NCBI RefSeq assembly: GCF_020745735.1
Contig: NC_083409.1
Location: 88,246,048-88,310,047 of the forward strand
DNA from: Hemiscyllium ocellatum
Taxonomy: Eukaryota
Direction of reading: 5' to 3'
Length of the DNA stretch: 64,000 nt
The first letter of the stretch is position 1, and the number at the start of each line of letters is the position of its first letter. A program made the position numbers and the translations under genes. Shown here piece by piece: positions 58,279 to 64,000 of this stretch. The notes under the pieces are model-generated. The model saw nothing but the letters and a program-made list of their open reading frames with translations, had not been told where the DNA came from and did not search any database.

Positions 58279-60172
58279 AGAAGCTAAATAAATGCTTGTA
58301 AGAAAACAAAAGTGTGGAATTAGCAATCTGGGAGTTGGAAACAATCCTGGTAATTCATAAAGAAAGAAATTCTGTGATCCAGTAAAACACAGCTGTGCTC
58401 ATTCATTTATACAGCATCAGGAGCCCTCAGCACCAATCCTGTTTGGTTTTACTGGTTAATCTGAGACTGGGCAGGGCACTTGTGTTAAAATGTGACAGGG
58501 GTGTGATAATGATGTACAGGGAGTGCCTGGACTATATACCTGATATGTAACCCCAACAGCTAAGTTAAAGTGGTAGGATGTGGGAAATGTGTGTGAGTGG
58601 TGCTTCCTGGCCATAGATGTGACTTAAACTACATTATTGCTGGGCATTAGAAGTGAGGTTCAAATCAATCAAGTTTTAATTGCTTCATCTGCGGTTTTTA
58701 AACAATCTGATTTTAATGCCATAGACTGACCCAAAGGAAGGAATCTCACACTGCTTTGAAGTCAGTTCAGGTCTTCATTTACAATTTACATGCTAGATTT
58801 AGTGTGGCATGAATAATTTTCACCTTACCCCCACAGGGGAGCTTTTCCTTGTTCCTGTTCCTGCGTGGCAAAAAAGAAAAATTGGATGGTGCAGACTGCA
58901 TCCAAATGGATGGAAAATCATAGGAATTTTCAAATGATTCTCCTTGTCTAAATTTTCACTATTTGCAGCATTCGGGTAATCCTGTATCAGTCAGAATATG
59001 ACCACGAAAACCTATCCCATAGAGTGGCAGGCTCAGAAAGGTGTTTAATGTAGAACGTATCTTTTGGGGAAGCTGTAACCCAGCTTCTAACCTTTGAGCG
59101 AGAAATGCTGGATTCTGAAATTTGTTTCTGATGTGCTTCACTGCAAGAAGCACCAAATGCATTAAAAACAAAGTGAGATACATCAACTGAAGCATTGATG
59201 CTTTAATCAGTCAGTGTTTTAAGAGGGTGCCATTGCAGCAGAACGTTATTCCCTGGAAATAAGATCCATTGAACCAATACATTCACTTGCATTTTGGTGT
59301 AAGGGTTGATTTACTGCTCTGTGATTACATAGTTAATGGGTTTCTTTCAACTGAAGTAAAGTTCTAAGTGTGTCATTATGTCTGTAATTGATTTATTGAA
59401 TAATTTATGCTGTGTTTATGCCAATCTAAGGTCAAACCAAGATATCCAGATTGGATTATGCATTTTAAAGCTGAAGGGAATTTAGTAAACATTACAGTTC
59501 TGATTTTAACCAGCACTGGGAATCGGGTGACAAAGCAAGCATCAAACTCAACCTGACCCTTGTGGTGTGGGGTTTCAGGCAATTTTAAGTCATCCACCAG
59601 TCAGCTGCTGTCCCTGGTTCCTCAAAGAGATTAAAATTGCATTTGTGGCTTGATTACATCAGAGGAGCATGATCTGCCCATTTTAGGAATGACCAAACGA
59701 ATTGCAGACCGGCATCCATCCTCAATGCCCAGATGAGTGGGTTAAATTCAAAGATGACGGGATCAGCATTGGACATCAGCAAATCCGGTTTCCGATAAAT
59801 TTCCTGGCAAGCAGGGAAGGGTTAACATCCGTGTGTAAGTTGGACAGGATAATCAATGGGCAAAAAGAAATGAAGATCAAGGTCAATAGGAAGAACATAT
59901 CAATGTGAGGGCATGATACTATACTTGTGCCCAAGAGGAAGTATAGGATTGTATGCGAGCTTTGCTGAGTAACTGACAAAGCGGATTTATTTACAAGGAA
60001 GTCTGCCCTGTTTTGGAATCCACTGAACCCTGTCTAAAGGATAAATAATGCACCATGCCCCTGCCAGCAATAGCAGTGGAACATGTTCCTCAGCAATACA
60101 TTTCCATAATTTCAATCTTTGACGACTTACCTGATGTATGTTACTGATGCTACCATGTAAGTTCCCATAAAG

Positions 60173-60736
60173 GCCTCTGGCATGGAGCCTGGCCCCGTTG
60201 CTCAGAAGGGTAGGGTGGAGAAAGGTAGAGCAATAGTTCTTGGGGACTCGATAGTGAGGGGTACAGACAGACGGTTTTGTGGGGGCGACAGGGACTCACG
60301 TTTGGTATGTTGCCTCCCAGGTGCAAGGGTACGTGATGTCACTGATCGTGTTTTCCGGGTCCTTAAGGGGGAGGGGGAGCAGCCCCAGATCGTGGTCCAC
60401 GTTGGCACCAACGATATAGGTAGGAAGAAGGGTGAGGATGTCAGACAGGCTTTCAGGGAGCTAGGTTGGAAGCTCAGAGTTAGAACAAACAGAGTTGTAG
60501 TCTCTGGTTTGCTACCCGTGCCACGTGATAGAGAGTCGAGGAATAGGGAGAGAGAGCAGTTAAATGCATGGCTACAGGGATGGTGCAGGAGGGAGGGATT
60601 CCAGTTTCTGGACAACTGGGGTCCTTTCTGAGGAAGGTGGGACCTCTATAAAAAGGATGGGCTACACCTGAACCTGAGGGGCACCAGTATCCTTGGGGGG
60701 AGGTTTGCTAGTGCTCTTTGGGAGGGTTTAAACTAA
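60173..60736 (+). pseudogene. CR1 ORF1 C-terminal SGNH esterase domain with one nonsense codon
   Basis: GDS, PGA, HVGTND motifs; TGA at 60629-60631, after which the frame continues GRWDLYKKDGLHLN...WEGLN to TAA at 60734-60736. Confidence 0.9.
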
Positions 60737-63621
60737 CTCCGCGGGGGCATGGGAACCAGGACTGTAGCTTTAGGGTACAGGACCTTGAGTGTAGGGAGGT
60801 TAGGAATAATGCAGCGATCTCTAAGGAGGGTGCCTGTAACCAGAAGGGTGGATTGAAGTGTGTATACTTCAATGCCAGAAGTATAAGGAATAAGGTAGGT
60901 GAACTTGCAGCGTGGGTTGGTACCTGGGACTTCGATGTTGTGGCCATTACAGAGACGTGGGTAGAACAGGGACAAGAATGGCTGTTGCACGTTCCAGGGT
61001 TCAAATGTTTTAGTAGGATCAGACATGGGGGTAAAAAAGGGGGAGGCGTGGCATTACTTGTCAAAGACAGTATCACAGCAGTGGAATGGACGATGGAAGA
61101 GGACTTGCCATCTGAGGTAGTTTGGGCTGAGGTTAGAAATAGGAAAGGTGAGGTCACCCTGTTAGGTGTTTTCTACAGGCCTCCTAATAGTCCTAGAGAA
61201 GTAGAGGATAATATTGCGAGGATGATTCAGGAAAAGAGTGAAGGTAGCAGGGTGGTTGTTATGGGGGACTTTAACTTCCCAGATATTGACTGGGAGAGCT
61301 ATAGCTCGAGTTCATTAGATGGGTCGGTGTTTGTACAATGTGTGCAGGAGGGTTTCCTGACACAATATGTCGACAGGCCAACAAGAGGGGAGGCTATATT
61401 GGATTTGGTTCTAGGTAATGAACCAGGCCAGGTGTTAGACTTGGAGGTAGGTGAGCACTTCGGGGACAGTGACCACAACTCGGTGACTTTTACTTTAGTG
61501 ATGGAGAGGGATAATCATGAGCCGCAGGGCAAGAGCTATAGCTGGGGGCAGGGAAATTATGATGCAGTGAGGCATGACTTAGGATGTGTGGATTGGAAAA
61601 ACAGGCTTCAAGAGAAGAACACTAATGAGATGTGGGGATTGTTCAAGGAGCAGCTACTGCGTGTCCTCGATAGGTATGTACCAGTCAGGCATGGTGTAAA
61701 GGGCCTTGTGAGGCAGCCGTGGTTTAGTAAGGAATTGGAGTCCCTTGTGAAAGGGAAGAAGGCGGCATATGTAAAGATGAGGCGTGAAGGTTCAGTAGGG
61801 GCGATTGAGAGTTATAAGGTAGCCAGGAAGGAGCTAAAGAGGGAGCTAAGAGAAGCGAGAAGGGGACATGAAAAGTCTTTAGCTGGTAGGATTAGGGAAA
61901 ACCCAAAGGCTTTCTATAGGTATGTCAAGAATAAAAGGATGACTAGGGTAGGTATCGGTCCAGTCAAGGATAGTAGTGGGAAGTTGTATGTGGAGGCGGA
62001 GGAGATTGGAGAGACATTAAATCAGTACTTTTCATCAGTATTCACTCAGGAACAGGACACTGTTGCTGATGTGAATATGGAATCACAAATAATTAGAATG
62101 GATGCCCTGGAAATATGCAGGGAAGAGGTTTTGGGAATATTGGAAAGGATGAATATAGATAAGTCTCCTGGGCCTGATGGCATTTACCCCAGGATCCTAT
62201 GGGAAGCTAGGGAGGAGATAGCAGAGCCATTGGCCTGGATTTTTCTGTCGTCATTGTCAATGGGAATAGTACCAGAGGACTGGAGGATAGCGAATGTGGT
62301 CCCATTGTTCAAGAAAGGGAGTAGGGATAGCCCTAGTAACTATAGGCCAGTGAGTCTGACTTCAGTGGTGGGCAAAGTCTTAGAGAGAATGGTAAGGGAT
62401 AAGATTTATGAACATCTGGGTAGGAATAACGTGATCAGGGATAGCCAGCATGGTTTTGTGAAGGGCAGGTCGTGCCTCACAAACCTTATTGAGTTCTTTG
62501 AGAAGGTGACTAAGGAAGTGGACGAGGGTAAAGCAGTAGATGTTGTGTATATGGATTTTAGTAAGGCGTTCGATAAGGTTCCCCATGGTAGGCTAATGCT
62601 AAAACTTCGGAGGTATGGCATTGAGGATACATTAGAGGTTTGGATTAGGAATTGGCTGGCTGGAAGGAGACAGAGGGTAGTAGTTGATGGATTATGTTCA
62701 TCTTGGAGCGCAGTTACTAGCGGTGTACCACAAGGATCTGTTTTGGGACCATTGCTTTTTGTTATCTTTATAAATGATCTAGAGGAAGGACTTGAAGGCT
62801 GGGTAAGCAAGTTTGCGGATGACACAAAAGTCGGTGGAGTTGTGGATAGTGAGGAAGGAAGTGGTAGGTTACAGAGGGATATAGATAAGTTGCAGAGCTG
62901 GGCGGAAATGTGGCAAATGGAATTCAATGTAGCTAAGTGCGAAGTCGTTCACTTTGGTAGGAATAACAAGATGATGGATTACTGGGCTAATGGTAGGCTA
63001 CTTGGTAGTGTGGATGAGCAGAGGGATCTTGGTGTCCATGTACACAGATCTCTGAAAGTTGCCACCCAGGTAAATAGTGCTGTGAGGAAGGCATATGGTG
63101 TACTGGGCTTTATTGGCAGAGGAATTGAGTTCCGGAGTCCTGAGGTCATGTTGCAGTTGTATAAGACTCTGGTGAGGCCTCATCTGGAGTATTGTGTGCA
63201 GTTTTGGTCGCCATACTATAGGAAGGATGTGGAAGCTTTAGAACGAGTGCAGAGGAGGTTTACCAGGATGTTGCCTGGAATGGTAGGAAAATCTTATGAG
63301 GAAAGGCTGAGGCACTTGGGGCTGTTCTCATTGGAGAAGAGAAGGTTTAGGGGAGATCTGATAGAAGTGTATAAGATGATTAGGGGTTTAGATAGGGTAG
63401 ATACTAAGAACCTTTTACCGCTAATGGAGTCAGGTGTTACTAGGGGACATAGCTTTAAATTAAGGGGAGGTAGGTATAGGACAGATGTTAGGGGTAGATT
63501 CTTCACACAGCGGGTTGTGAGTTCATGGAATGTCCTGCCCGTATCAGTGGTGAACTCTCCTTCTTTATGGTCATTTAAGCGGGCATTGGATAGGCATTTG
63601 GAAGTTATTGGGCTAGTATAG
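60718..63621 (+). CDS. CR1 ORF2: APE endonuclease plus reverse transcriptase
   Basis: 967 open codons: YFNARSI, AITETW, YRPP, GDFN, SDH; KSPGPDG, GVPQGSVLGP, FADD. The annotated start is TTG, not ATG. Confidence 0.95.
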   Translation: MGGFKLTPRGHGNQDCSFRVQDLECREVRNNAAISKEGACNQKGGLKCVYFNARSIRNKVGELAAWVGTWDFDVVAITETWVEQGQEWLLHVPGFKCFSRIRHGGKKGGGVALLVKDSITAVEWTMEEDLPSEVVWAEVRNRKGEVTLLGVFYRPPNSPREVEDNIARMIQEKSEGSRVVVMGDFNFPDIDWESYSSSSLDGSVFVQCVQEGFLTQYVDRPTRGEAILDLVLGNEPGQVLDLEVGEHFGDSDHNSVTFTLVMERDNHEPQGKSYSWGQGNYDAVRHDLGCVDWKNRLQEKNTNEMWGLFKEQLLRVLDRYVPVRHGVKGLVRQPWFSKELESLVKGKKAAYVKMRREGSVGAIESYKVARKELKRELREARRGHEKSLAGRIRENPKAFYRYVKNKRMTRVGIGPVKDSSGKLYVEAEEIGETLNQYFSSVFTQEQDTVADVNMESQIIRMDALEICREEVLGILERMNIDKSPGPDGIYPRILWEAREEIAEPLAWIFLSSLSMGIVPEDWRIANVVPLFKKGSRDSPSNYRPVSLTSVVGKVLERMVRDKIYEHLGRNNVIRDSQHGFVKGRSCLTNLIEFFEKVTKEVDEGKAVDVVYMDFSKAFDKVPHGRLMLKLRRYGIEDTLEVWIRNWLAGRRQRVVVDGLCSSWSAVTSGVPQGSVLGPLLFVIFINDLEEGLEGWVSKFADDTKVGGVVDSEEGSGRLQRDIDKLQSWAEMWQMEFNVAKCEVVHFGRNNKMMDYWANGRLLGSVDEQRDLGVHVHRSLKVATQVNSAVRKAYGVLGFIGRGIEFRSPEVMLQLYKTLVRPHLEYCVQFWSPYYRKDVEALERVQRRFTRMLPGMVGKSYEERLRHLGLFSLEKRRFRGDLIEVYKMIRGLDRVDTKNLLPLMESGVTRGHSFKLRGGRYRTDVRGRFFTQRVVSSWNVLPVSVVNSPSLWSFKRALDRHLEVIGLV

Positions 63622-64000
63622 GTTAGGTAGGATTCGGTCGGCGCAACATCGAGGGCCGAAGGGCCTGTACTGCGCTGTATCCTTCTATGTTCTATGTTCT
63701 ATGTTCTAAAGTGAACCACTCTTTCATGTGTCCTTTTGACCTGCAGGCACTGTGAACTTGGAAGTTTTACCAACCAGCATTGCTCGTGATACAGGACAAA
63801 GGAGCATCCTCAGGTTATCTCCAAAGTATTTCCAGCATCATTGTGGCTATATGTGTTCTGGGGAATGATATTACCGAGGTTGAAGAGAAACTAGTTAAAG
63901 TAGAGTGCATAGGAAAGGAAGTGACAGAGCAAAAGCCAAACCTATTTGTTGGTTGGTCATATTGTTGGCATCTTATGGTGCTTTATAGACCTTGGAACTC

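Follow-up and report, generated by a model that had tools for sequence, protein, structure and literature searches.

A CR1-type element with two overlapping reading frames

The window analysed here is a stretch of 64,000 nucleotides (nt) from Hemiscyllium ocellatum (assembly GCF_020745735.1, contig NC_083409.1, positions 88,246,048 to 88,310,047 of the forward strand), and it carries near its 3' end a copy of a CR1-type long interspersed nuclear element (LINE) in which a first open reading frame (ORF1) overlaps a second (ORF2) in the -1 register. The features of this copy are collected in Table 1. ORF2 combines an apurinic-type endonuclease (APE) with a reverse transcriptase (RT), and ORF1 is of the esterase type, as is characteristic of the CR1 clade. 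LINEs of this clade end in short tandem repeats rather than in poly(A), and the 3' terminus of the window copy, which consists of such repeats, fits this expectation; the bird-type locus L071, whose ORF2 is 46% identical to that of the window copy (929 amino acids, aa), ends in (GATTCTAT)n. On the 5' side the match to the sibling copy L013 stops near 60171, and the sibling ORF1 comprises 308 aa with an N-terminal Cys-pair finger. The closest named relatives of ORF1 come from sharks and rays, and a homologue search also matched a protein named from Rissa tridactyla. Pfam detected no protease domain in ORF2. An esterase-type ORF1 has been described as canonical for vertebrate CR1 (PMC13343379; here and below, cited articles are represented by excerpts).

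Table 1. Features of the CR1-type copy, in positions of the window
Feature	Position	Strand	Basis or remark
5'-truncated CR1-type LINE copy of a young, abundant family	60171..63708	+	match to sibling L013; 3' repeat
ORF1, 3' part, SGNH/GDSL esterase domain, interrupted in the window copy	60171..60736	+	Pfam Lipase_GDSL_2, E 7.9e-11
ORF2, APE endonuclease and RT, 969 open codons	60712..63621	+	Pfam Exo_endo_phos, E 1e-20; RVT_1, E 3e-35
G_GGU_UUA, upstream overlapping heptamer, lineage-restricted	60724..60730	+	8/23 representatives
U_UUA_AAC slippery heptamer (last base of a Gly codon, Leu and Asn codons), predicted -1 shift site	60727..60733	+	TTA 23/23, AAC 23/23, preceding T 22/23
-1-frame linker from shift site to endonuclease	60733..60864	+	no AUG in the window subfamily; length and sequence vary by lineage, kept open in frame
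ORF1 stop immediately 3' of the heptamer	60734..60736	+	preceded by one more codon in the L031/L148 lineage; T as first base in 23/23
G-run GGGGG-CAT-GGG, candidate unstructured 3' stimulator	60743..60753	+	starts 9 nt past the heptamer; about 10 nt in most lineages
3' microsatellite (TTCTATG)3 + TTCTA	63683..63708	+	sequence

When the junction region (60640-60860) was searched against the genome of 3.98 Gb, 1,399 candidates were returned, and since all 40 scored matches were 100% identical, the family is evidently young. An in-frame TGA at 60629-60631 is private to the window copy, the corresponding codon being TGG in 28 and GGG in one of 29 other family loci. Because of this stop the window copy is translationally dead upstream of the heptamer and could not be read up to the shift site, and the question of frameshifting therefore concerns the family, in which 11 of the same 29 loci have 314-315 open ORF1 codons and 21 have an ORF2 that stays open to the end of the stored stretch.

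ORF1 of the window copy ends GAG GGT TTA AAC TAA (60722-60736), and ORF2 opens in the -1 frame directly after a TAG at 60709-60711, giving the 25-nt overlap that a preliminary description of this DNA had reported. The same description had proposed two tandem slippery heptamers, G_GGU_UUA and U_UUA_AAC, as a candidate -1 frameshift signal linking ORF1 to an ORF2 whose first AUG lies well inside the gene, and had noted a G-rich stretch and a stem beyond them; the phase and conservation of U_UUA_AAC have stood up, while the tandem arrangement has not, and the stem is not a conserved stimulator. Both words, which read G_GGT_TTA and T_TTA_AAC in the DNA, are indeed phased with ORF1. G_GGU_UUA is carried by 8 of 23 representative copies (introduced below), all of which belong to one shark group, so that the tandem arrangement is incidental and U_UUA_AAC alone is conserved. 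The first AUG of ORF2 lies at 61093, as had been stated, but is codon 128 rather than 126; it does fall 3' of the APE motifs YFNARSI (codon 52) and AITETW (codon 78), and since it lies past these motifs, initiation there would be expected to give a crippled enzyme. The chance level of in-frame X_XXY_YYZ words is three per 962 ORF2 codons.

The heptamer is conserved in sequence and in phase

Three pattern searches on the esterase motif DGLHLN, in which the heptamer was not required, yielded 90 loci from many lineages. TTTAAAC was present between 12 nt before and 18 nt after its expected position in 69 of the 90, a form with one mismatch in 7 and neither in 14, and the exact word occurred in 6 of 3,960 control windows. 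Conservation of the heptamer and its phase within the family, which the preliminary description had named as a check, thus held strongly across loci, lineages and genome-wide counts. The latter are dominated by large families whose copies are not independent: among 12,213 genome-wide copies with Leu or Phe followed by Asn at the ORF1 terminus, 10,863 read T-TTA-AAC and 47 read CTN-AAY. The first 100 copies listed comprised 88 with the exact heptamer, 9 with TTTAAAT (mostly from one lineage) and 3 with GTTAAAC, and all 100 kept TTA. As judged from their form, both recurrent variants would still fit slippage, since U_UUA_AAU conforms to X_XXY_YYZ and G_UU(A) is a natural variant of the XXX triplet in equine arteritis virus (PMC5009743). 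A lineage whose ORF1 ends E-D-L-N (L137, L140 and further rows of the genome list) often has U_UUA_AAU followed by the two stops TAG TAA.

The H. ocellatum genome contains a second family, with about 40% ORF1 identity to the first as judged from the query P0049; its ORF1 ends ACT TTA AAC TTC TGA, in which the heptamer is intact and one further codon precedes the stop. P0012 and P0047, when used as queries, appear to return only the two families already found, as indicated by shared coordinates and ORF lengths. Metagenome contigs contributed 45 loci, including bird-type elements and other lineages at only 31-44% identity to the shark type; 18 of these gave no match to the ORF1 C-terminus, 6 end before it and 21 reach it. 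The 21 read T-TTA-AAC in 16 cases, G-TTA-AAC in one (L062, which has a 973-codon open ORF2), TTA-AAC with the preceding base unprinted in one and T-TTA-AAT in one, and the word is broken in two. No relatives of the main ORF1 were found in the viral and prokaryote collections. From this distribution the junction is evidently a real and strongly conserved recoding-type signal of CR1 LINEs and not a chance word in one copy.

Codon choice points to a constraint on the RNA

Codon usage at the ORF1 terminus was compared in 23 natural copies, hand-picked after the junctions had been seen at about one per lineage and required to have an unbroken frame at the ORF1 end; 13 come from the H. ocellatum genome and 10 from metagenomes, they span shark-type, bird-type and other lineages, and their pairwise identity is 13-92%. 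The terminal Leu is encoded by TTA and the terminal Asn by AAC in every one, and the base before TTA is T in 22 of 23, under Gly, Thr, Arg, Asn, Ala, Tyr, Ser and Cys. Of 130 aligned columns, the terminal Leu and Asn columns are the only two whose third base never varies. Five different codons encode the DGLHLN Leu of these copies (CTG 13, CTA 5, CTT 3, TTG 1, TTA 1). In six ORF2s that were compared, TTA accounts for 13 of 23 Leu codons in L061 and for 7-21% of them in the other five. Since TTA and AAC are invariant, the T is kept under eight amino acids and the DGLHLN Leu varies among five codons, the constraint is evidently on the RNA word, X_XXY_YYZ in ORF1 phase, and not on the amino acids.

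These data bear directly on the possibility that Leu-Asn is needed by the ORF1 protein itself, with codons that are inherited or AT-biased and with ORF2 made in some other way. Both residues are indeed invariant at the C-terminus of a 24-protein alignment, a set that was assembled from proteins with that ending. Synonymous sites elsewhere are, however, well mixed in the same lineages, TTA is a minor Leu codon in five of the six ORF2s and the preceding T is indifferent to the amino acid it serves, so that the codon test largely refutes this explanation and we give it next to no credence. Depending on the relative, 22 to 39 residues separate the D-x-x-H motif from L-N, which argues that L-N tracks the end of the ORF rather than the fold.

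The protein record extends the pattern. The homologue search returned 86 proteins whose C-termini are mostly L-N, from 89% down to about 30% identity, the bird protein included, and to these we added the best 150 from a profile search against 1.84 billion representatives. Of the 226 proteins in the two sets, 110 have the esterase motif close to a terminal L-N that is followed by 0 to 4 residues. When these were collapsed to 42 non-redundant tails, just one had before L a residue whose codons are unable to end in T (E, K, Q, M, W), compared with 13 and 14 of 42 at the next two positions and 3 at the fourth, against a background of 0.16; the sole exception, P0087, ends E-L-N and could read G_UUA_AAC.

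Ten distant esterase-ORF1 proteins (P0141, P0144, P0151, P0153, P0165, P0173, P0184, P0186, P0203 and P0208) end Q-G-N or S-G-N, which would fit G_GGA_AAC, while A_AAA_AAC would fit P0168, which ends S-K-N, and P0188, P0192 and P0207, in which T/S/R-K-N stands just short of the C-terminus. From the protein ends alone, a swap between classic slippery heptamers in distant esterase-ORF1 lineages is possible. Searches for the corresponding DNA of the Q-G-N and S-K-N relatives gave nothing or 4 weak matches (21-24% identity) in viral contigs and none in genome contigs and plasmids, and a search of the H. ocellatum genome recovered only L-N-type lineages (8 of 10 loci readable).

ORF2 is kept in the -1 register without a conserved start codon

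In 30 of 32 measurable copies the N-A-R-S motif of the endonuclease lies in the -1 frame from the heptamer. The intervening linkers are 39, 48, 53, 69 and 70 codons long, and 29 of the 30 have no stop in the -1 frame, compared with 1-9 stops in the other two frames. Upstream, the -1 frame usually closes 1-17 codons before the heptamer (37 in two bird-type copies), and the first in-frame ATG after it is codon 4, 16, 22, 25, 27, 79, 122 or 183, depending on the lineage. The limits of the open frame and the scatter of first ATGs thus bracket entry into ORF2 near the heptamer and without a conserved AUG. In the window an AUG in the ORF1 frame, four codons past the stop, opens a 35-codon ORF (60749-60856); the same type of ATG recurs in several shark-type lineages within a GGGG-ATGGGA motif.

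The fixed register is also relevant to an origin at the RNA level, in which ORF1 and ORF2 would be joined by polymerase slippage in TTTAAA or by splicing at TAG, or ORF2 transcribed from an internal TATA-like promoter; we regard this as very improbable. TTTAAA resembles a TATA variant, and in many lineages a splice-acceptor-like CTAG follows the heptamer. Effects of G-quadruplexes on polymerase realignment have moreover been raised (PMC5009743). The runs are, however, short (3 T and 3 A), no AG acceptor is kept (TAA follows the heptamer in the window family and TTC TGA in that of L031), and a promoter would need neither the ORF1 phase nor the fixed -1 register. Among the rows listed, contigs from four presumed-RNA runs show no indel in 60682-60886, and one of them (X9 record 27) covers 60665-61073 gap-free; no GT..AG was present among the 15 of 30 joints listed. 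This check is weak, since contigs drop rare variants; the presumed-RNA runs shared only 9-14% of words, and the RNA status of the contigs is mostly guessed.

A G-run is conserved downstream of the heptamer

With the first base past the heptamer numbered +0, base +0 is T in all 23 representatives, and G occupies +10, +11, +12 and +13 in 20, 22, 22 and 23 of them, so that the G-rich stretch reported previously past the junction proved to be its conserved 3' feature. The codon at +11 to +13 in the ORF2 frame is GGG in 21 of 23, whereas GGG accounts for 17-37% of Gly codons in six ORF2s. A second GGG follows at +17 to +19 in about 16 of 23. In 19 of 23 representatives a G4Hunter-like score puts the region among roughly the highest 5% of values within 500 nt.

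The CTGTA..TACAG stem that had been noted beside the G-rich stretch does fold (60762-60780), but it starts 28 nt past the heptamer, and it is not a conserved stimulator. Consensus helices include the heptamer itself, and pairs with a double change number 0 of 11 in the shark-type and 2 of 6 in the bird-type alignment. Pseudoknots were searched by eye and by duplex scan only, and none was found.

Additional observations

In the full-length copy L025 the 5' untranslated region upstream of ORF1 contains a tandem duplication of about 180 nt. A CR1 ORF1 with 73% identity (P0006) bears the NCBI name of a Pseudomonas aeruginosa SGNH hydrolase; it lies on a 4-kb contig and is probably host contamination in a bacterial assembly.

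Discussion

We think it likely, on the strength of these comparisons, that in CR1 LINEs whose ORF1 encodes an esterase, ORF2 is expressed through programmed -1 frameshifting at U_UUA_AAC, giving an ORF1-ORF2 fusion. This heptamer is among the most shift-prone for mammalian ribosomes (PMC5009743). Most ribosomes would stop at the UAR that follows Asn, while a fraction would be slowed by this next-codon stop and by the G-run 10-13 nt downstream, and the Leu and Asn tRNAs would then slip back by one base, so that the window subfamily would read ...GLN and then LTPRG.... The predicted product of about 1,270 aa (308 + 962) would consist of esterase, linker, endonuclease and reverse transcriptase. 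It would be a minority beside an excess of free ORF1 protein, which would fix the ratio of ORF1 to ORF2, and it could anchor the enzyme in multimers of ORF1, much as Gag-Pol is held among Gag proteins. The G-run might act as a protein-bound motif, as a weak two-tier quadruplex or through long-range pairing that escaped detection.

Canonical -1 sites need a 3' stem-loop or pseudoknot 5-9 nt downstream. Of what defines such sites, the phased heptamer, an open -1 ORF and conservation beyond amino-acid need are all found at the CR1 junction, and the 3' structure is not. This and several other observations weigh against the proposal. No local structure was found, as five single folds were no better than shuffles (z -0.37 to +0.99) and consensus folds were weak, at -2.8 kcal/mol for 10 shark-type and -1.6 kcal/mol for 9 bird-type junctions, and no long-range partner position was shared when the G-run was scanned for duplexes with the remainder of nine elements. 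The G-run itself offers mostly two to three GGG tracts (range 1-4) and starts 9-10 nt past the heptamer, outside the 6-8 nt optimum for a quadruplex. The 23 representatives were picked by hand post hoc and are related (some pairs 76-92%), and decayed copies were omitted. The 14 of 90 loci without the heptamer are deleted or decayed copies together with five near-identical copies that have an ORF1 stop. Finally, ATG, GTG or TTG two bases past the stop in several bird-type lineages would permit reinitiation, the mode reported for L1 and SART1 (PMC2881922, PMC5009743).

The five near-identical copies (L130, L131, L132, L135 and L184) lie in the first 1.2 Mb of one contig (G000 contig C1) and have the premature ORF1 stop and the destroyed heptamer in common. 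Since many other loci near that contig end also fall into repeated sets, this suggests segmental duplications and not an active variant.

Under termination-reinitiation in the style of L1 and SART1, ribosomes would stop at the UAR and resume in the -1 frame at an AUG or near-cognate codon close by; UUUAAACUAR and the G-run would serve to retain them, and the invariant T directly after the heptamer would suit such a role. The in-frame codon two bases past the ORF1 stop is ATG in six bird-type lineages (L063, L064, L068, L069, L071 and L089) and GTG in three (L066, L067 and L080), and these nine might combine frameshifting with reinitiation. A start codon near the ORF1 stop is, however, confined to some bird-type lineages and absent from shark-type and other lineages; in lineages without it the equivalent codon is CCG, TGG, CAG, AGG, TCG, AGC or AGT. 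In the window subfamily the nearest AUG past the stop, at 60749, does not share the frame of ORF2. Since L1 ORF2 is reported to be independent of its AUG (PMC5009743), a missing start codon is not decisive against this mode. What reinitiation leaves unexplained is the X_XXY_YYZ form in ORF1 phase, the slip-compatible nature of the variants and the fixed -1 register, and we consider it improbable. Altogether, reinitiation, RNA-level recoding and protein-level constraint each explain less than frameshifting does.

L1 and SART1, for which unconventional initiation or reinitiation of ORF2 is described (PMC2881922), resemble CR1 in having a bicistronic LINE RNA with translation of ORF2 tied to ORF1. 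They differ in giving a free ORF2 protein, whereas in CR1 a slippery word lies in a 25-nt overlap between ORF1 and an ORF2 in the -1 register. Frameshifting in a LINE would not be unprecedented, since ORF2 of the Dictyostelium elements TRE5-A and TRE3-A is stated to require a -1 frameshift (PMC5911963). Like CR1 these are two-ORF elements without long terminal repeats (non-LTR) whose ORF2 encodes APE and RT; unlike CR1 they belong to another lineage, have another type of ORF1 and are targeted to tRNA genes. CR1 also has a defined U_UUA_AAC, stop and G-run across lineages, whereas the passage on the TRE elements names no site or stimulator.

Among viruses, U_UUA_AAC is named as the shift site of the coronavirus infectious bronchitis virus (PMC5009743), which shares both heptamer and phase with CR1. 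The arrangement also resembles retroviral gag-pol, with a structural or nucleic-acid-binding ORF upstream and the RT ORF in the -1 frame. Unlike at these coronaviral and retroviral sites, no 3' pseudoknot or stem-loop was found, and the host element is a non-LTR retrotransposon and not a virus; because no protease domain was seen in ORF2, the fusion may not be cleaved. At the shift site of pea enation mosaic virus, the proximity of a stop is important (PMC5009743).

Two precedents are relevant to the G-run. At UUUAAAC, quadruplexes can induce shifting, most effectively when the spacer is 6-8 nt and with an efficiency of about 7% (PMC3919603), although no natural use of G-quadruplex stimulators was known to a 2016 review, in the portion cited here (PMC5009743). 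The -2/-1 site in nsp2 of porcine reproductive and respiratory syndrome virus (PRRSV) relies on a C-rich motif that lies 10-11 nt downstream, lacks structure and binds poly(C)-binding protein (PCBP) and nsp1-beta (PMC4937337). The CR1 junction is similar in combining a slippery site without structure and a short conserved homopolymer-rich motif about 10-11 nt further on, a likeness of spacing only: the motif is G-rich and not C-rich, the heptamer is U_UUA_AAC and not G_GUU_UUU, and any trans-acting protein would be hypothetical. The spacing of the G-run would fit a protein-bound model better than a quadruplex. A more far-reaching proposal, which we regard as rather unlikely, is that the RT of CR1, the leading LINE in birds, reptiles and sharks, is made only as a fusion, that the shift is stimulated by a G-run bound by a host protein or, as feedback, by the ORF1 protein and not by structure, and that the Q-G-N and S-K-N lineages use G_GGA_AAC and A_AAA_AAC; if true, CR1 would be a cellular-genome counterpart of the protein-stimulated frameshifting of arteriviruses.

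In the literature searched we found no link between CR1 and ribosomal frameshifting, and the original CR1 papers may hold an earlier suggestion. Within the excerpts, CR1 is unmentioned in the first 300,000 of 449,034 characters of the 2016 frameshifting review (PMC5009743), a 2026 survey of vertebrate CR1 has nothing on frameshifting, overlap or translation (PMC13343379), an account of the esterase structure has nothing on frameshifting (PMC3905857), and a description of chicken CR1 gives two ORFs with translation unmentioned (PMC2734521).

How non-LTR elements express ORF2 is a long-standing question that has been answered mainly for L1 and SART1, by reinitiation. In most vertebrates the CR1 group dominates among retrotransposons, and in sharks and rays it accounts for 22-34% of the genome (PMC13343379). 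If the proposal is true, their enzyme would be a fusion with the esterase ORF1, ORF2 annotations that begin at the first AUG would lose part of the endonuclease, and retrotransposition assays with free ORF2 would employ the wrong protein. CR1 would then also hold a natural and very widespread frameshift site that works without RNA structure and with a conserved G-run.

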